Source of the DNA: a virus
IMG/VR virus record: IMGVR_UViG_3300046522_000297
Span: 1-64,000 of that record
Reading direction: 5' to 3' (one strand)
Length of the DNA stretch: 64,000 nucleotides
The notes under the pieces are model-generated. The model was not told the DNA's origin, did no database searches, and worked only from the letters and a program-made list of their open reading frames with translations. Position 1 is the first letter of the stretch; each line of letters opens with the position of its first letter. Position numbers and translations under genes: made by a program. Below are positions 3,580-63,200 of this stretch, piece by piece.

Positions 3580-3924
3580 ATGTCGAACGCAAACCCCAAC
3601 AAATCCGAAAGCAGTTTGTCGTCCCTGTCGCAAGCAGACATCGACCGTATCGCAGGCGAGGCCGTGTCCGCAGCGAAGATCGCAGCGAAGTCCGCCGCAG
3701 CAGAAGAAGTTGCCAGCCGTATCGGCGATGTCGAAATGACTGCAGCGAGGGCAGCGGCGGCTGCAGCGAGCGAAGCAATCGCCCGGCAGCAGAAGGCAAA
3801 CAAGATGAAAGAATACGGCACGATCGCCGGCATCTCCCTCGGAACCTTCGCCCTCGGCACCCTGGGTATGGCCGGGTACGACAAATTCCGCAACCGCAAC
3901 AACCCCGGCAATCGCCACCAGTAA
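3580..3924 (+). CDS. Ala-rich protein with C-terminal hydrophobic helix
   Basis: RBS AGGAG; IAGISLGTFALGTLGMAG. Confidence 0.75.
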   Translation: MSNANPNKSESSLSSLSQADIDRIAGEAVSAAKIAAKSAAAEEVASRIGDVEMTAARAAAAAASEAIARQQKANKMKEYGTIAGISLGTFALGTLGMAGYDKFRNRNNPGNRHQ

Positions 3925-18410: not shown

Positions 18411-19055
18411 ATGAAAATTCTAACTTTGACTGGTCCGAGCTGCTCGGGCAAAACGACACTCTTAAACGAGCTTGTCGACAAACACGGTTATCAGAACATA
18501 GTTAGCCATACCACCAGACCGCCTCGCCCAGGTGAAGTGAACGGACGGGATTACCACTTCATCGATAACCAGACTTTCGTAGAAGATGCATACGAAGGCG
18601 AATTCCTGGAAAACGTTATGTTCAACGGGTTCAGATATGGCGTTAGCCGTGAAGAGATTTACAAAGCTAATAAGTCTGGTAAAATTGCTGCACTGATCGT
18701 TGAACCCGGCGGTCTGGTACAGATAATGAAATATGCACAGGATCGGGGCGATGTCGAGATGAAGAAAGTGTTCATAGGGGGTGATACTCATGAACTTATG
18801 ACTCGCTACCTTCAACGTATGCACGGTGAGAATCTTAACGAACGTGGAGTTGCTGAACGTCATGCAAGACGTCTCGATTCCCTGATCATGGAATCTGCTA
18901 CCTGGACCCCGTGCCCGTTCGAATCCAAAAGTGATTACTCGCTGGATTACCTGAAAATGCAACCCAGCTATATCCCGTACGACCTAGTAATACCGGAGTC
19001 AAACGACGAGAATTTCGAAGAAATAGTACAACAAATAAAAGGACTATATAAATGA
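18411..19055 (+). CDS. guanylate kinase-like nucleotide kinase
   Basis: GPSCSGKTT, SHTTRPPRPGEVNGRDYHF. Confidence 0.88.
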   Translation: MKILTLTGPSCSGKTTLLNELVDKHGYQNIVSHTTRPPRPGEVNGRDYHFIDNQTFVEDAYEGEFLENVMFNGFRYGVSREEIYKANKSGKIAALIVEPGGLVQIMKYAQDRGDVEMKKVFIGGDTHELMTRYLQRMHGENLNERGVAERHARRLDSLIMESATWTPCPFESKSDYSLDYLKMQPSYIPYDLVIPESNDENFEEIVQQIKGLYK

Positions 19056-38753: not shown

Positions 38754-39289
38754 TGAGTGGCCCGACCTACGTATACCGGGTCGGAATTGATCCGGCCTGG
38801 AAAAACCTTGGTGTAGCTTTGGTTAAGGAGAATTTGGAAACCCACGAAATTACGTTGGTGAAATCCTGGGTTATGAATCCGTCTACCTTCAAATCCATTC
38901 CAGACTTCGTAGACGCTCTATGGAAAGAGGTGGTTGAAGCTTTTGATAAAGACGAAGGTGAGATACTGGCATCTGCTAATATCGAACGTTTCGTTGCCTA
39001 TGCCGGTGTTTCTACCGCAGAGACTGAAAACATCTGTATGATCATAGGTGCTTTGCAGTATCTATTCAAAGACAACGAGACGGGGCTCCACCGCGCTATC
39101 GACTGGAAGATGGATCTGGTAAAGGCGCTTCACAAGAAGAAGAAATTCGAGAACCCTAGCTCCAAGCTTGACAAGAAGTTCTCCATCGCTGCAGCTAAGG
39201 CGTGCTTGGATCACGAACACACGTTCTCCACTGACCATGAAGCCGATGCTACCTGCTTGGCTTGTTACCCAGTTATAATGAGAAAATGA
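38753..39289 (+). CDS. RuvC-like Holliday junction resolvase
   Basis: VGIDPAWKNLG, IE, WK, DHEADA. Confidence 0.75.
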   Translation: MSGPTYVYRVGIDPAWKNLGVALVKENLETHEITLVKSWVMNPSTFKSIPDFVDALWKEVVEAFDKDEGEILASANIERFVAYAGVSTAETENICMIIGALQYLFKDNETGLHRAIDWKMDLVKALHKKKKFENPSSKLDKKFSIAAAKACLDHEHTFSTDHEADATCLACYPVIMRK

Positions 39290-39591
39290 CCCCTGAAGAA
39301 GCAGAGCTAGCTAGAGGTGCTCACGAAACCCTGGCCAGAATACTTAAGAGTAACAAAGAAGCTGCCTGGCAGCGTCACTGTGACATCGCTCATGCCAACA
39401 TGGAGGGAGGACTCCTAAAATGGAAAGAAGCTAACGAGGCAGCTTGTAGAGTCATGATGAGCCTGTTCGGGGTAGATACTTCACCTCAATTTATAGAAGT
39501 CCTTAAACAAAGAGCACCTATTCCAAAGGCAATAGTTGAAACTCCGAAACAGTAATGATACAATTGCCTGATAATAATAAAGGATCTTAAT

Positions 39592-39948
39592 ATGTTTGAT
39601 TTTCTTAGCGGTATGTTAGGTGTGGTTTTCGGAAGAGTGAAATCGCCCCTGCCTACGCTGAAGCCCGAGCCTCCTAAATTCCAGGAAGTGTATCCTAATG
39701 GCGACGGAGAGTTTTCCGCAGTAGAAGTGAAAACCCCGTCTGTTTACACGGCTCCTAAGAAAGAGCCCACGGAAATAGAAAAAATGATTCAGCAATTTAA
39801 TCCCCGTCGTGATATGATTGTCATGAGCTACGCAAGACGTGATAAGCTTACTCCAGGCGAAAAGGATTGGCTGGATTCATTGGGTAACCGTGTACATTAC
39901 TTTACAGGCAACACATTGGTGAATTCGGCCATTGTAAGTTGCATGTAA
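39592..39948 (+). CDS. hypothetical protein
   Basis: RBS AAGGA. Confidence 0.6.
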   Translation: MFDFLSGMLGVVFGRVKSPLPTLKPEPPKFQEVYPNGDGEFSAVEVKTPSVYTAPKKEPTEIEKMIQQFNPRRDMIVMSYARRDKLTPGEKDWLDSLGNRVHYFTGNTLVNSAIVSCM

Positions 39949-39967
39949 AATATTGTTACAAAATCTC

Positions 39968-39995
39968 TTCACAAATATAAAAGTAGTGCTATAAT
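39968..39995 (+). promoter_or_regulatory. sigma-70-type promoter for the tRNA cluster leader
   Basis: TTCACA-16-TATAAT with extended TGn. Confidence 0.6.
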
Positions 39996-40003
39996 AAATG
40001 TAT

Positions 40004-40126
40004 ATGAACACTTTCAACACTAACCCCCATTTCTCAGCAATTAAAGCTTCCTTCAAGGCGGCCAATATTGTTGCGCCCGTGGTTTTTGTAAATTCGTATA
40101 ATAGTGAGGGGATCGGCGGAGCTTAA
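40004..40126 (+). CDS. putative leader peptide (40 aa) of an attenuator
   Basis: MNTFNTNPHFSAIKASFKAANIVAPVVFVNSYNSEGIGGA; its stop codon lies within the 5' strand of an antiterminator helix. Confidence 0.6.
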   Translation: MNTFNTNPHFSAIKASFKAANIVAPVVFVNSYNSEGIGGA

Positions 40127-40192
40127 TGTAACTCTACATTAGTTAGCTTTAACCGAACCCACTCTCCCACAAGGTTAGTGGGTTTTTTGTTT
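40103..40192 (+). promoter_or_regulatory. antiterminator/terminator switch upstream of the first tRNA
   Basis: terminator AACCCACT(40156-63)/AGTGGGTT(40177-84)+T tract; competing helix GAGGGGATCGG..AGCT.TAATGTA / TACATTA..AGCT..CCGAACCCACTC. Confidence 0.65.
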
Positions 40193-40201
40193 TATAACTA
40201 T

Positions 40202-40276
40202 CGGAGTGTAGTCCAGTGGTAGGTCGCCTGCTTTGGGAGCAGGAACTCGAAGGTTCGATTCCTTCCACTCCGACCA
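40202..40276 (+). tRNA. tRNA-Pro(TGG)
   Basis: cloverleaf, CCTGC TTTGGGA GCAGG, CCA end. Confidence 0.92.
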
Positions 40277-40291
40277 AATTTAAGGGCAGCT

Positions 40292-40522
40292 ATGTTTTAT
40301 AGCGTAGTTGGTTTCGCAGTAATGATGTTAGCCATGTTGTACGTTACCATAGTATATGCCGTAGTGGCATTAAATACGCTAGGTGAATACAACATTGGCG
40401 GCGTACCTAATACCCTCCGTGCAAAAATCGGAGTTCTGGTAATAGGACTCGTAATAGGTGCGCTTTGGTGGAAGCTGATTCATAATCTTCCGTTTACAAT
40501 CCATATGTCTGTTAGCACATGA
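40292..40522 (+). CDS. small membrane protein
   Basis: two hydrophobic helices. Confidence 0.55.
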   Translation: MFYSVVGFAVMMLAMLYVTIVYAVVALNTLGEYNIGGVPNTLRAKIGVLVIGLVIGALWWKLIHNLPFTIHMSVST

Positions 40523-40693
40523 TTACTAAAATCGAGTTAGATAAAGATAACCGAATGCTTCGCATAGGCTTCGGTAAGAATGAAGGTAAATGGTTTATCC
40601 GTGTTGATCTTTGGACACACGGATATCGACTTACCGAGAAGTAAAATAACTCCGGCATTTAAATAGATGCCGGATATTAATAGAATACTAAGC

Positions 40694-40780
40694 TGTCCAG
40701 TGACCGGAACTGGCATCGGCCCCGGCTGTTAACCGGGTATGGAGTGAAATCCTTTGCAGGTTCGAAGCCTGCCTGGACAG
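40694..40780 (+). tRNA. tRNA-Asn(GTT), long variable arm, no encoded CCA
   Basis: TGTCCAG/CTGGACA stem, CCCGG CTGTTAA CCGGG, GCAGG TTCGAAG CCTGC, G73. Confidence 0.8.
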
Positions 40781-40789
40781 CTTAGTGTT

Positions 40790-41356
40790 CTAACGTTTAA
40801 GTTTTAAATACTGTTTCCTGACAGCGTTGTCTGAAACCCCAAATTTAGTACCGAGAGTTGTCATAGGGATTTTCTGCACTTCAATAAGATCAATCAGGTC
40901 AACCGAATTCCAGTCCACCCTTCTACGCATAATAGCCGCACATTTGTTAGAGCAATACGAAAGGGTGCTAGATTTTTCTGAACCACATACCGGGCAACTA
41001 TCACGGATAGGGATAATGGAAACAGACCTACCGTTAGAGTTGAAATTAAAAAAGGACCTATCTAATCTGGAATAAGTTTCAGGAAGATCTGAAATGCCTG
41101 CGTGTACTTCTCGGTGGCAATTTGCACATAGGAGTATGCATTTATCAAGTTCATTCAGAATGGAGTCTAATTTAATTGGGTTAGCTACTATTTTACCGAA
41201 CGAGAATTCCTTCTGAGAAGGATCTATATGATGGAACTCTAAAGCCGAGTTACATTTATCGTAAAAACAGATTTGACATCTGTTACCCATAGCTTCGACT
41301 ATACGGGTTTTAGTTGATTGTCTCCAGTTTTTTACACGTTGTGACGAAGTTAGCAT
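40790..41356 (-). CDS. HNH homing endonuclease, antisense within the tRNA cluster
   Basis: CQIC..C.SALEFHH.DP...KCILLCANCHREVH; C-terminal CxxC and HTH. Confidence 0.85.
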   Translation of the reverse strand: MLTSSQRVKNWRQSTKTRIVEAMGNRCQICFYDKCNSALEFHHIDPSQKEFSFGKIVANPIKLDSILNELDKCILLCANCHREVHAGISDLPETYSRLDRSFFNFNSNGRSVSIIPIRDSCPVCGSEKSSTLSYCSNKCAAIMRRRVDWNSVDLIDLIEVQKIPMTTLGTKFGVSDNAVRKQYLKLKR

Positions 41357-41438
41357 TTTATTGTTTTTGTAGTATTTCGAACCTTGAGTTGTATTTTAAC
41401 ATTTTATGTAATATAATTCAAGGTTCGAAAATAATAAG

Positions 41439-41515
41439 CCTGGAGTAGCTCAGCTGGTCAGAGCATTCGCTTGATAAGCGAAGGGTCAGTGGTTCAAGTC
41501 CACTCTCTAGGACCA
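41439..41515 (+). tRNA. tRNA-Ile(GAT)
   Basis: cloverleaf, TTCGC TTGATAA GCGAA, CCA. Confidence 0.93.
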
Positions 41516-41541
41516 GATTAACCATAACTAGAGAGGTCAAA

Positions 41542-41793
41542 TTGAGATTGACGCCTAGAGGTATTGAACGAGGTCTCCCTCCTCGTTTTAAAGTAAAAAG
41601 TGATAAGTGGTATCCTTGCCCTGGATTTATAAAAGATCCTGTTCCCGGATCCCAAGAACGTAAAAGATTTGATAAGTGGCACAAGCGTTTAACTAAGGTT
41701 AGATCTCTAGGCAGGCCAGATCCTTCGAGGATATTTTGGAGAATGCATCCGGAAGCTTACGCAAAGATGACTGACGGGAAAACGCCGTGGTAA
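41542..41793 (+). CDS. hypothetical protein
   Basis: TTG start after GAGG. Confidence 0.45.
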   Translation: MRLTPRGIERGLPPRFKVKSDKWYPCPGFIKDPVPGSQERKRFDKWHKRLTKVRSLGRPDPSRIFWRMHPEAYAKMTDGKTPW

Positions 41794-42052
41794 AGAAGCC
41801 TGAATTTGGACCGGGTAAGAGAAGAGTGGATGTAGTTGATGCGTTTATAGAAAACCAGGGATCATATGATGTTCTTGTGAGTAGACCTAAAAATCTCCCA
41901 ATGGAATGGCTCAACGGAACCCTCGTTACCACTGGTAAAATTCTAGCGATGAGAGGAAACCTTGTGGAAACCAACCAGTACGTGTACAATGTACTCAGTT
42001 GGGACCTTAGTAACATCTCCCGACAAATGGAACTGTTTTAATCGATTAACTC

Positions 42053-42147
42053 GGAAACGTTAGCCGAATCGGCATAGCGGCAGCTGCCTTGAAAGCAGAA
42101 GGCTCACGGGAGTGGGTGTGTGAGTTCGAGTCTCACCGTTTCCGCCA
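42053..42147 (+). tRNA. tRNA-Ser(TGA)
   Basis: long variable arm, CTGC CTTGAAA GCAG, G73-CCA. Confidence 0.92.
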
Positions 42148-42400
42148 TATAACTATAACAATGACTAAACAAGTAAAACAACCAGCAGTACCTCAGATGA
42201 AACCTCTCGTATATGCAGTGAAGTGGATCTGTGAAAACTGGAAATATTTAGCGCGCTAAGCCGATAACGCAGCAATTGCGTTGATCTAAAACCGCACCCG
42301 ATCCGGCAGGGTGTAGAGTTCGTTAGTAGGGAAGGTCTTACTTCTAGTGGTGGAATCTGCTAGGAGGTTCTACTAAGCGACTCATTCTTTTAACCTATAT

Positions 42401-42486
42401 GGGCGACGTGATAGCATGGCCACTATCCCGAGGCTGTAACCCTCGTGTCTCCGACTTTCTTCGTTCGAATCGAAGGTCGCTCACCA
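42401..42486 (+). tRNA. tRNA-Tyr(GTA)
   Basis: CGAGG CTGTAAC CCTCG, variable arm, A73-CCA. Confidence 0.88.
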
Positions 42487-42503
42487 AACACTAAAGGATT
42501 GCT

Positions 42504-42884
42504 ATGAGGAAAATAGCGATTTTGCAAGATTGTTGGAATTACGATAGCTATAGTAACGCAGAACGAATAATCGAAAAGATTACAGATTTCGTAGAAGTAA
42601 GTGATGAGGATTACAACCTCCTAGTGAATGCTTCACATCAACAAGGCTTTACCGTAATCCAAATGCCTTCAAATACTCAAGAGTTTGTAGAGAATACTGT
42701 ACAAGCGTATCTTGAGAGTATCAAGGCTAAAGAAGAGAAGCGTAGAAAAGCCGAACAAGAACGCAAAAGACTACGTGAAGAAAACAAGCGTAGGCAAAAA
42801 GAGAAAGAGGAAGAAGCCGAACGTAAGAAGTTAGAAGAACTTATACGTAAGCACGGTATTCCTAAATTAGACATTGCATCCTAA
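42504..42884 (+). CDS. hypothetical protein with charged coiled-coil tail
   Basis: RBS AAGGA; stop overlaps the 5' end of tRNA-Phe. Confidence 0.65.
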   Translation: MRKIAILQDCWNYDSYSNAERIIEKITDFVEVSDEDYNLLVNASHQQGFTVIQMPSNTQEFVENTVQAYLESIKAKEEKRRKAEQERKRLREENKRRQKEKEEEAERKKLEELIRKHGIPKLDIAS

Positions 42885-42951
42885 GCTAATCTGGTGAAAG
42901 CGACGGCCTGAAAAGTCGTAGAGCGTGGCTCGAAACCACGAGGGTGCACCA
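42876..42951 (+). tRNA. tRNA-Phe(GAA)
   Basis: ACGGC CTGAAAA GTCGT, atypical T loop CTCGAAA, CCA. Confidence 0.85.
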
Positions 42952-42970
42952 CTCAACAAAAGCACTATTC

Positions 42971-42979
42971 TTGGTATAA
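42971..42979 (+). promoter_or_regulatory. phage promoter motif driving the His/Val/suppressor tRNA unit
   Basis: TTGGTATAA GGAT AGTG + hairpin ATAGT/ACTAT. Confidence 0.7.
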
Positions 42980-43014
42980 GGATAGTGCATAAACTATAAC
43001 CAGAGTTTTTTGAT

Positions 43015-43088
43015 TTGGGCGTAGCTTAGTGGTAAAGCCGGGGATTGTGACTCCCCTCACACGAGTTCGATCCTCGTCGCTCAACCCA
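43015..43088 (+). tRNA. tRNA-His(GTG)
   Basis: GGGGA TTGTGAC TCCCC, C73-CCA; position -1 is T rather than G. Confidence 0.9.
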
Positions 43089-43227
43089 AATTAAAGGACT
43101 TTGTCCCTAGAGCATGGTAAATTCGGCACGCTCTCTAAAGTACCAGACCCGACCTCGTATGCGCCCATCATGGCCTTGTCGTAAAGACAGAGTAGTGGTA
43201 GACTAGGCAGAGGCTAGTCAGATTTAT

Positions 43228-43303
43228 GGTTCCTTAGCTCAGCTGGTAGAGCAAGATCCTTACAAGATCGAGGTCGGCGGTTCGATCCCGTCAGGAACCA
43301 CCA
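43228..43303 (+). tRNA. tRNA-Val(TAC)
   Basis: GATC CTTACAA GATC, CCA. Confidence 0.93.
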
Positions 43304-43312
43304 AGTTTCAAA

Positions 43313-43388
43313 GGGGGTATAGCTCAGTGGTCAGAGCAGAGGCTTCTAAACCCTTGTGTCCGGAGTTCGAATCTCCGTGCCCCCACCA
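43313..43388 (+). tRNA. amber suppressor tRNA (anticodon CTA)
   Basis: GGGGGTA/TGCCCCC acceptor, GCTC..GAGC D arm, loop TT-CTA-AA (CTA 43346-48), CGGAG TTCGAAT CTCCG, A73-CCA; C31:C39 mismatch. Confidence 0.88.
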
Positions 43389-43397
43389 AATTTCAAA

Positions 43398-43499
43398 CAT
43401 AAAATAGCTCAGAGTCCCGAATTGACAGAGCATTCCCCGTGAGGCTGAATCAGACGGGAGAGGTCGTTGAGAGACATCAGGGGTTCTCAACTTTTATGA
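43398..43499 (+). ncRNA. tRNA-like RNA A (expanded D, anticodon and T loops; no CCA)
   Basis: CATAAAA/TTTTATG stem, TA-GCTC..GAGC, CCCGT..ACGGG arm, AGGTC, GTTGAGA..TCTCAAC. Confidence 0.6.
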
Positions 43500-43510
43500 T
43501 TGGTTTCAAA

Positions 43511-43594
43511 CTCGAAGAAGCTCAAGCACTCCACAAGTGAGCAAGTCCGGTGTAGGACATAAGGTTGGTGGTTGGAATCCATCCTTCGAGGCCA
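43511..43594 (+). ncRNA. tRNA-like RNA B (aberrant anticodon arm, CCA end)
   Basis: CTCGAAG/CTTCGAG-G-CCA, GCTCA..TGAGC, GTCC GGTGTA GGAC, GGTGG TTGGAAT CCATC. Confidence 0.7.
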
Positions 43595-43603
43595 AGTTTC
43601 AAA

Positions 43604-43688
43604 CACGAGATAGCTCAAAGTCCCTTAACAGAGCAGTCCAATTACTGAAAACAGGTTGCTGGGCTCGGGTCCCCAGCTCTCGTGACCA
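43604..43688 (+). ncRNA. tRNA-like RNA C (no canonical anticodon arm, CCA end)
   Basis: CACGAGA/TCTCGTG-A-CCA, TA-GCTC..GAGC, GCTGGG..CCCAGC. Confidence 0.7.
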
Positions 43689-43729
43689 TTTCGTAACACC
43701 TTTTTTTAACCTTAAATAGAAAGCTAAAA

Positions 43730-44062
43730 ATGACGTAGATTTCCGAACACACCTACAATTACGTTTTTGTCAGAACTGATTTACCCATCCCTCAACAGCT
43801 AGTCCAAGCTGGACACGCTGCCTTAGAAGCTGGAGCAACTTTCGGTCGCATATCGAAAGACCCTGCTTCCCTCATCATACTTCAAGTAAAGAACAAAGCT
43901 AAGCTTGAAGAAGCAATGGCCAAGATCCAAGAGGCCGGAATCCGAATAGAAGCATTTTACGAGCCCGACTGGGACTATGGTTTAACTGCGTTTGCAACTG
44001 AACCCGTGACTCAAGAGAAGCGTAGTATTTTCCGAAAATTCAGACTCTGGAGCCAGGCATGA
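43730..44062 (+). CDS. Pth2-fold peptidyl-tRNA hydrolase-like protein with in-frame TAG at codon 3
   Basis: ATG ACG TAG ATT... then YVFVRTDL...QLVQAGHAALE...LIILQVKN..L......FYEPD..YGLTAFATEP......FRKFRLW; missed by the ORF track. Confidence 0.78.
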
Positions 44063-45978: not shown

Positions 45979-46443
45979 ATGACTCGTATCAATCTAGTCC
46001 ACCCTTCCAGACTTGCAGATCAACATCTGTTCGCTGAATGGCGTGAGATTAAACACATCCCGGCTTTTCTTAATCAGCTTTTAGCCAAAGGTAAAAGCAT
46101 TGAAGAGATCAAAGCCAAGATCCCTGAAAAGTTCTGTCTTAACACTGGGCACAAGTACTTCTTTGTGGATAAACTCAAATTCCTGAGTGGTAGGTTCTGG
46201 AAGATTCTAGCAGAGCTAGATGCCAGAGAATACAAGACGTTCAGCGGAGCGCCTTGGGAATGGGAGTACTCCCTGGAGAAAATTCCAGATGAGTACTTCA
46301 ATGACTACGTCCCTGATTATATCGCCCTCGAACTCTCTGAACAACGCCTCCTGGAACGAATAGATCAACGTCCGAACTGGTATCGCTATAAGGGCGAGAT
46401 CAAGGACTTGCAATTCTTCAAGGATCTGCTATACTCTAAATAA
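45979..46443 (+). CDS. denV: pyrimidine dimer DNA glycosylase (T4 endonuclease V-like)
   Basis: MTRINL....LADQHLFAEWREI, GH..FF.DKL.FL..R, RP.WYRY. Confidence 0.92.
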   Translation: MTRINLVHPSRLADQHLFAEWREIKHIPAFLNQLLAKGKSIEEIKAKIPEKFCLNTGHKYFFVDKLKFLSGRFWKILAELDAREYKTFSGAPWEWEYSLEKIPDEYFNDYVPDYIALELSEQRLLERIDQRPNWYRYKGEIKDLQFFKDLLYSK

Positions 46444-46453
46444 CCCTTCAACT

Positions 46454-46545
46454 GGTGATGTGGCTGAGAGGCTTAAGGCAGCGGTTTGCTAAACCGTCGA
46501 ATCTCTTACGAGGTTCCGTGGGTTCGACTCCCACCATCACCGCCA
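46454..46545 (+). tRNA. tRNA-Ser(GCT)
   Basis: GCGGT TTGCTAA ACCGT, long variable arm, G73-CCA. Confidence 0.93.
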
Positions 46546-58371: not shown

Positions 58372-58400
58372 TTGCAGTATAGTGACTACGTTGCTATAAT
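58372..58400 (+). promoter_or_regulatory. sigma-70-type promoter
   Basis: TTGCAG-17-TATAAT upstream of the tRNA pair. Confidence 0.65.
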
Positions 58401-58413
58401 GTAAGTCTTCTGT

Positions 58414-58501
58414 GCGCCGGAAGCCCTATTGGTCGGAGGCCCTCGACTCATAATCGAGCTGCGAAAGCACGTTGCGGGTTCAAAGCCCGCCCGGCGCACC
58501 A
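58414..58501 (+). tRNA. tRNA with CAT anticodon (Met or Ile2), long variable arm
   Basis: GCGCCGG/CCGGCGC, CTCGA CTCATAA TCGAG, TGC GAAA GCA arm, A73-CCA. Confidence 0.85.
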
Positions 58502-62920: not shown

Positions 62921-63109
62921 ATGTACATTACCTGGACTCTCCTATTTATTGTATCTGCAATCCTCGGAGGGCTCTTCGGTGATTGTGGTATGACTGCAAC
63001 AGCGGGTGGATTGTTTTCCATCGCTCTAGTTGCAGCAATTGCATTATTCGTAACGTGGATAGATGACGTAGAAACTAAAACCGTTGACGACTCGGTACGT
63101 AAGCGTTAA
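62921..63109 (+). CDS. small membrane protein
   Basis: two hydrophobic helices. Confidence 0.55.
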   Translation: MYITWTLLFIVSAILGGLFGDCGMTATAGGLFSIALVAAIALFVTWIDDVETKTVDDSVRKR

Positions 63110-63124
63110 AATAGTATCTCAAAT

Positions 63125-63200
63125 GCGGGGTTAGCTCAGTTGGTAGAGCGCTTTCCTTCCAAGTAAGAGGTCGCCGATTCGAATTCGGCATCCCGCTCCA
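63125..63200 (+). tRNA. tRNA-Gly(TCC)
   Basis: loop CTTCCAA, U73-CCA; TTGACG-17-TAAAAT upstream. Confidence 0.92.

Follow-up and report, generated by a model that had tools for sequence, protein, structure and literature searches.

A conserved leader of ~190–200 nt, located between a sigma-70-type promoter and tRNA-Pro in a phage from soil, probably contains a conditional terminator of some kind before the tRNA gene. The best single reading, to which we assign a probability of roughly 0.5, is a model in which a ribosome on a leaderless open reading frame (ORF) would serve as the sensor of an attenuator placed before the first tRNA cluster. The element would work like a leader-peptide attenuator yet fits no described family. 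The window, the whole stretch of DNA analysed, covers the initial 64 kb of an IMG/VR virus record that is 114 kb long and 71% complete. The entire stretch is also contained in a public rhizosphere sequencing run, possibly the sample from which it was assembled. The leader unit fills the gap between a gene for a 118-aa protein (end 39948) and tRNA-Pro (start 40202), and the following features are discussed below, with a related contig, L002, for comparison.

39968–39995, + strand: sigma-70-type promoter, consisting of a −35 box TTCACA, a 16-nt spacer and an extended −10 box TGcTATAAT
40002–40004, + strand: predicted transcription start, A40002, 7 nt past the −10 box, with A40004 as the alternative
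40004–40126, + strand: leader ORF of 40 codons, from ATG 40004 to the stop codon TAA at 40124–40126, without a Shine-Dalgarno sequence
40035–40073, + strand: central hairpin inside the ORF (codons 11–24), with a folding energy of −11.2 kcal/mol and z scores of −1.4 (window) and −2.4 (L002)
40076–40111, + strand: weak hairpin, a possible anti-antiterminator, pairing CCC 40076–78 with GGG 40109–111, −6 kcal/mol
40106–40164, + strand: long hairpin (antiterminator), whose base GAGGGG:CCCACUC overlaps the terminator 5′ arm
40156–40193, + strand: intrinsic terminator with an 8-bp stem and a 2-bp inner stem, then UUUUUUGUUUU
40166–40182, + strand: alternative 5-bp hairpin CCCAC/GUGGG, a weak terminator that coexists with the closed antiterminator
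40202–40276, + strand: tRNA-Pro(UGG), the first gene past the terminator, without a promoter of its own
40292–40522, + strand: gene for a 76-aa membrane protein that has a Shine-Dalgarno sequence and immediately follows tRNA-Pro within one transcription unit

The promoter matches the consensus at 11 of 12 positions, carries the additional TG and is the top promoter match within 38.5–42.5 kb. A sigma-70-type promoter at this place had been claimed in a preliminary description of this DNA, and the claim stands. The geometry of the promoter predicts that the RNA starts at 40002–40004, that is, with AUAUG or AUG at its 5′ end. The same module is found on two IMG/VR contigs (L002 and L003), which are identical over the leader locus. 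Between the window and L002, the promoter stretch from −45 to +1 is 96% identical and the leader 85%, compared with 72% for the upstream gene, 76% for tRNA-Pro and 77% for the downstream gene. L002 carries an extra ORF (L002 positions 3589–3884), absent from the window, between the 118-aa protein gene and the leader promoter. Given this insertion of an upstream gene, promoter, leader, terminator and tRNA move as one unit. In L002, the terminator abuts tRNA-Pro and the spacer is almost absent (8 nt in the window). A private promoter for tRNA-Pro in the gap between terminator and tRNA was ruled out, as the gap lacks a −35 box and L002 has lost the spacer.

Two further variants of the leader were obtained. 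P0002 is a 41-aa JGI protein that represents a third variant with a one-codon deletion, and a 151-nt soil contig (record 16 of the set X3) contains the 3′ half of a fourth variant with 21 differences and no gaps. The X3 variant was rebuilt from the 18 listed of its 21 differences, and the soil sequencing runs served solely as a source of sequence variants. Coverage by an RNA sequencing run was limited to tRNA-like segments derived from other organisms. DNA-pattern and protein-based searches of viral contigs yielded no relatives beyond the L002 and L003 contigs, and a search among viral contigs with the downstream 76-aa protein gave no match. Metagenome searches for relatives of the leader found none, and neither the leader nor the upstream gene had a relative in a phage collection. 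Rfam searches of positions 39000–44000, and of 39990–40205 with lax filters, returned only tRNAs and sub-threshold noise; the leader and riboswitch families scored 15–20 bits at best against thresholds of 40–60, and the T-box was absent even at E values up to 10.

The terminator hairpin (AACCCACU...AGUGGGUU, 40156–40184; z −3.2) is followed by UUUUUUGUUUU, which runs to 40193. Its folding energy is −13.5 kcal/mol in the window, −13.2 kcal/mol in L002 and −12.7 kcal/mol in the X3 variant. The terminator scan listed only the 5-bp stem CCCAC/GUGGG at 40166–40182, and the full hairpin is longer. A terminator 10 nt before tRNA-Pro had been described previously; the terminator is present, but the gap is 8 nt (40193 to 40202).

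The 59-nt long hairpin has a folding energy of −23.5 kcal/mol (z −4.9), and none of 200 shuffled sequences folds as well; its z score in L002 is −4.2. The stop codon of the leader sits in the 5′ arm of this hairpin, near the apex, about 64 nt from the termination point. The pairing of the end and stop of the ORF with a downstream segment, proposed beforehand to sequester the 5′ arm of the terminator, is thus confirmed as the helix 40106–40164, which is mutually exclusive with the terminator. In folds of the growing chain, the base GAGGGG:CCCACUC closes once position 40165 is made, with a gain of 8 kcal/mol; therefore, naked RNA defaults to the antiterminator. The masking of the terminator was analyzed by keeping the terminator and dinucleotide-shuffling the 154 nt upstream of it 300 times. 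The terminator probability is 0.015 in the window and 0.17 in L002, versus a shuffle median of 0.95, and no shuffle of the 300 is as low in either case. The masking of the terminator arm is non-random.

The CCCAC motif occurs twice, at 40158–40162 and 40166–40170, with 3 nt in between; the duplicate is kept in L002 and reads CUCAC in the soil variant. Owing to the second copy, the 5-bp hairpin beside the U-tract (−6.4 kcal/mol in the window and −3.4 kcal/mol in the X3 variant) can form even with the long hairpin closed. The previously proposed pair of states consequently holds for the exclusive helices but not for an ON state free of any terminator, since the 5-bp hairpin persists. In the folding model, the two states would be a strong and a weak terminator, not a terminator and none.

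The X3 variant bears on these helices in several ways. Its changes G40116A and C40153T turn the long-hairpin pair 40116:40153 from G-C to A-U, which is the only two-sided compensatory pair among three or four close relatives. The base of the antiterminator is weakened by C40164A and G40108T and the 5-bp hairpin by C40167T; none of the changes affects the full terminator. Conservation extends to the internal loops of the long hairpin. A check of conservation in related phages, suggested at the outset, found the module kept in the relatives and the frame open in them.

Other pairings were evaluated in the same region. The central hairpin is 92% identical in L002, where two of its G·U pairs become A-U; it plays no role in the switch, and a function as a pause or timing element is speculation. 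The weak hairpin at 40076–40111 is poorly conserved, and two of its pairs are broken in the X3 variant. It corresponds to a trp-like 1:2 helix that appeared in the three-sequence consensus fold; this helix was dropped because, at −6 kcal/mol, it loses to the antiterminator at equilibrium and is disrupted in X3. A long-range pairing of CACUAACC (40018–25) with GGUUAGUG (40173–80), part of the best fold of the window, was dropped because it is not conserved in L002.

The leader ORF encodes 6 Asn and 4 Phe among its 40 codons and, with its ATG at 40004, begins at about the predicted transcription start, in agreement with the preliminary description. The start selected by the gene callers is an in-frame ATG at 39998, two codons earlier, which lies inside the promoter discriminator. 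Only 0.5% of shuffles reproduce the geometry of the ORF, namely an ATG within 5 nt of the start and a stop codon in the hairpin's 5′ arm; with the ATG held fixed, 7.5% do. The frame is uninterrupted in the window, L002, P0002 and the X3 variant, with a chance of surviving of 0.19 for the 22 substitutions of L002 and 0.65 for the 7 of X3. The sole indel within the ORF is 3 nt long; just past the stop codon, indels of 2, 1 and 8 nt are observed. Substitutions are distributed over the three codon positions as 6:8:8, without a third-position excess, versus 21:17:66 in the neighbouring gene. The frame rather than the peptide seems to matter, and the substitution pattern fits a regulatory or accidental reading frame, not a functional small protein.

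The same data bear on whether the locus is an ordinary gene for a small protein of 40–42 aa, with its own promoter and terminator, that lies ahead of the tRNA by chance. The gene callers list the ORF as a 'hypothetical protein', and the C-terminal half of the peptide is similar among the variants. This explanation is nevertheless highly improbable given the 6:8:8 distribution and the non-synonymous change of 10 of the 15 codons that differ between the window and L002, which include radical replacements (Phe to Pro, Val to Ser and Ile to Asn). In the X3 variant, all six changed codons are non-synonymous. The peptide has no family in PHROGs, and a search of 1.8 billion representative proteins returned only P0002 and two spurious long proteins, with no relative outside the clade. 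An ordinary gene would also leave tRNA-Pro without a promoter. The codon-usage score of the ORF is uninformative (+4.6 in the window and −4.3 in L002).

A Shine-Dalgarno sequence was looked for at the leader ORF and is absent; such sequences are present at 38% of the crudely called gene starts of the phage, versus a background of 10%. Translation of the ORF would therefore require a leaderless start. A second candidate for such a start is the guanylate kinase gene of the phage (window 18375–19055; 214 aa with a Pfam match from residue 2). Its ATG at 18411 is located 7 nt past TTGATC-17-TGaTATAAT, which has a consensus extended −10 box, and it has no Shine-Dalgarno sequence. Promoter and spacing are kept in a related contig, L009, and the guanylate kinase mRNA is likely leaderless. 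Because this gene starts 7 nt after a consensus −10 box, leaderless starts are plausible in this phage. The trp attenuator RNA of Sinorhizobium meliloti has been described as leaderless (PMC6614838). A start–stop mini-ORF, GGAG-N4-AUG-UAA at 40118–40131, was dropped because it is lost in L002 and the X3 variant.

The lack of a Shine-Dalgarno sequence would also suit an untranslated structured RNA, either a stable small RNA or a 5′ leader, that is made from its own strong promoter and contains the ORF fortuitously. Its 3′ end would be formed at the terminator or by an RNase P cut just upstream of tRNA-Pro, this tRNA would be expressed by constitutive leak-through, and the RNA might act in trans. 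The locus has the usual layout of a small RNA, in which a dedicated promoter precedes three hairpins and a terminator that carries a U-tail. The leader is conserved above the flanking genes without a third-position pattern, and its central hairpin has no part in the switch. The tRNA cluster of phage T4 harbours stable RNAs of unknown function. However, a small RNA that needs its terminator should not mask it, and no shuffled sequence masks it as well. Nor does this explanation account for an ORF geometry found in 0.5% of shuffles and a frame kept in every variant. The complementarity of the leader to the phage genome is at chance (15 eleven-mers versus 10.9 expected), a 13-mer match inside the guanylate kinase gene is at about the chance level, and no Rfam family is matched. 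An untranslated RNA is thus a somewhat unlikely alternative. The terminated attenuator RNA rnTrpL is also a trans-acting small RNA (PMC6614838), so the attenuator and small-RNA readings may both hold.

The consequences of leader translation were modelled by treating the ribosome as a 30-nt unpaired footprint in equilibrium folds, whereas the real decision would be kinetic. With the A site at codons 32–41 (codon 41 being the stop), the probability of the terminator is 0.89–0.95 in the window, L002 and the X3 variant. The proposal that a ribosome at the stop codon melts the antiterminator is therefore borne out in the model. With the A site at codons 24–30 of the window, the antiterminator stays closed and the terminator probability is 0.002–0.007. 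In L002, the modelled response to stalls at codons 10–27 is blurred and the switch is less clean. In the X3 variant, whose antiterminator is weak, the terminator prevails in each of the modelled states. The expected preservation of the antiterminator by an upstream stall thus applies to the window but is blurred in L002 and gives way to the terminator in X3. Likewise, folding of both states, which had been proposed as a check, reproduces the claimed switch for the window, less cleanly for L002 and not for X3.

The switch itself is well supported by the masking relative to shuffles, and it could in principle be set by something other than a ribosome, such as an RNA-binding protein of phage or host, a tRNA, or a factor for processive antitermination that would let the polymerase through at a fixed time during infection, in the manner of Q at lambda tR′. 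The combination of a strong constitutive promoter, a ~190-nt leader and a terminator resembles lambda PR′–tR′ (see also PMC7547250), and the conserved internal loops of the hairpin also point in this direction. Against such a gate, the Q-type antiterminators PF06530 and PF03589 were not detected in the 114-kb record, which is 71% complete, and no T-box or other Rfam match was found at E values up to 10. The competing helix would be superfluous for processive antitermination, and the geometry and codon content of the ORF would be left unexplained. Control by such a factor is consequently improbable, and the leader-peptide attenuator is the reading pursued below.

The first tRNA cluster (40.2–43.4 kb) contains tRNAs for Pro, Asn, Ile, Ser, Tyr, Phe, His and Val and an amber suppressor. 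A plus-strand terminator scan downstream of tRNA-Pro found none until 45936. A homologue of the 76-aa membrane protein is encoded at the same place in L002, followed by tRNA-Asn. The promoter scan gave a weak candidate promoter for tRNA-Asn itself, so the leader may not gate the whole cluster. The tRNA-Asn(GUU) of the window (40694–40781) is 88 nt long and has a weak tRNA-Sec-like match in Rfam (26.5 bits); the tRNA-Asn at the same place in L002 is a canonical 76 nt, and the extra length in the window is possibly a long variable arm. An HNH endonuclease gene (40790–41356, − strand; PHROG match with an E value of 8e-38) is located antisense between tRNA-Asn and tRNA-Ile. The shorter Asn–Ile gap of L002 suggests that this contig lacks the gene, as would be expected of a mobile homing endonuclease within the tRNA island. 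The last tRNA of the cluster, at 43313–43388, is of the amber suppressor type (anticodon CUA). The stop codon of the leader is TAA in all three variants with DNA seen, and amber suppression would not read through it.

Three other tRNAs of the phage, tRNA-Ser(GCU), tRNA-Met and tRNA-Gly, have dedicated sigma-70-type promoters without a leader (stretches 46408–46454, 58372–58414 and 63084–63125, respectively). Their −10 boxes end 12–18 nt ahead of the mature tRNA 5′ ends (46454, 58414 and 63125, respectively). By this comparison, the 200-nt leader ahead of tRNA-Pro stands out as exceptional.

The eight amino acids of the first cluster account for 25 of the 39 leader codons (p = 0.002–0.014 under four null models, with the set chosen post hoc), and for 40% of a crudely predicted proteome (ORFs of at least 100 aa). 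Leader codons 25–34 are ten consecutive in-set codons in the window, L002 and P0002 (p = 0.002, also post hoc), and they partly overlap the stretch where a modelled stall keeps the antiterminator. Among the replacements between the window and L002, 9 of 10 keep the in-set or out-of-set class, which was equalled in 0.7% of simulations (p = 0.007) with substitutions at the same positions and an amino-acid set picked after looking at the data. Keeping at least 24 in-set codons is not unusual in the simulation, and the match to the set is less good in P0002 (21 of 38 codons) and in the X3 variant. No codon enrichment in the leader is seen when all 21 phage tRNAs are considered, and the ORF has no run of a single regulatory codon, unlike the trp, his or phe leaders. 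The general translation-stress sensor proposed previously is refined by these data, as the leader has an excess of codons for the eight amino acids whose tRNAs make up the downstream cluster, a set defined post hoc. The codon content points to a leader that would respond by feedback from the cluster's own tRNAs rather than to general stress.

The attenuator would operate as follows. Host RNA polymerase would initiate at the strong promoter to generate a transcript that begins at the leader AUG or 2 nt before it. As the RNA grows, the last codons of the ORF (GAGGGG...) would pair with CCCACUC and close the long hairpin. The closed hairpin would withhold the 5′ arm of the terminator, only the weak 5-bp hairpin would form, and the polymerase would mostly enter tRNA-Pro. 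Smooth translation to codons 32–41 or the stop would unwind the 5′ arm of the hairpin; the freed arm would allow the full −13 kcal/mol terminator to fold, and transcription would stop about 10 nt before the tRNA. A ribosome delayed at codons 24–30 would leave the antiterminator closed. Codons 24–30 specify almost exclusively Pro, Val, Phe and Asn and would thus be read by downstream tRNAs, so the phage would step up production of these tRNAs during a shortage and cut it back once the supply is adequate. In this scheme, we infer the transcript start, translation of the ORF, the relative timing of polymerase and ribosome, and both the sign and the magnitude of the effect.

The leader could go further and act as a self-correcting gauge of tRNA supply that senses codons read by exactly the tRNAs of the gated cluster, a possible but tentative extension. 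Shortage or cleavage of host tRNAs would stall the leader ribosome and open the gate, and the phage tRNAs would close it. If true, this gauge would be the first attenuator known to govern tRNA genes by tRNA availability, and would do so on a leaderless ORF. Phage tRNA clusters are usually seen as constitutive cargo that offsets codon bias or replaces host tRNAs cut by defence nucleases. A cis-acting gate that senses translation capacity would mean that phages dose tRNAs on demand. Classical attenuation, known from amino-acid operons, would then include tRNA genes as well, and engineers could use the element as a small, naturally occurring sensor of elongation capacity. Even with a silent ORF, a conserved terminator and antiterminator before a promoterless tRNA would constitute a regulatory element outside the described families.

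Several known systems share parts of this architecture. Small RNAs can derive from the spacers of tRNA precursors, as does E. coli 3′ETS-leuZ. Like the leader described here, 3′ETS-leuZ and the stable RNAs of the T4 cluster are structured non-tRNA RNAs co-transcribed with tRNAs; unlike it, they have neither a terminator-masking helix nor an ORF that spans from the start to the switch.

The late promoter region of lambdoid phages provides a second parallel. In Stx phages, StxS is the short PR′–tR′ transcript and the counterpart of lambda 6S RNA (PMC7547250). A phage promoter, a ~190-nt leader and a terminator gate a downstream block there, as they would in the present element, and the short PR′–tR′ RNA is a by-product that can act in trans. 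The lambda gate is controlled by the Q protein, not by an RNA switch, and the 114-kb record (71% complete) has no Q homologue.

Attenuators of the vmlR type sense ribosome stalling in general. The same applies to Bacillus bmrB-bmrCD (PMC4191407) and mef/mel (PMC4335068). These three resemble the present leader in having a longer leader ORF without a single regulatory codon, and a stalled ribosome favours the antiterminator and readthrough, as proposed here. They differ in that they answer antibiotics and control resistance genes, whereas the codons of the phage leader match the downstream tRNAs and the leader has no known arrest motif.

The leader-peptide attenuators of amino-acid operons (trp, his, leu, thr, ilv and pheA) also combine a promoter-proximal intrinsic terminator with an antiterminator overlapping the 5′ arm of that terminator and with a short ORF ending in the upstream arm of the antiterminator. 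Their leaders abound in codons linked to what the operon produces, a feature that the phage leader may share. In E. coli trpL, roughly 70 nt separate the stop codon from the termination point, close to the about 64 nt in the phage leader. For S. meliloti trpL, a leaderless leader ORF like the one predicted here has been reported (PMC6614838). With the Rfam Trp_leader model, the phage element reaches 15.6 bits, short of the threshold of 41, and is thus not a member of that family. In contrast to the amino-acid operon attenuators, the phage leader has no Shine-Dalgarno sequence and lacks a strong 1:2 helix, so that readthrough is the default state of its naked RNA. The leaders of amino-acid operons repeat one codon and their attenuators gate biosynthetic enzymes; the leader described here mixes the codons of eight amino acids and precedes tRNAs in a phage.
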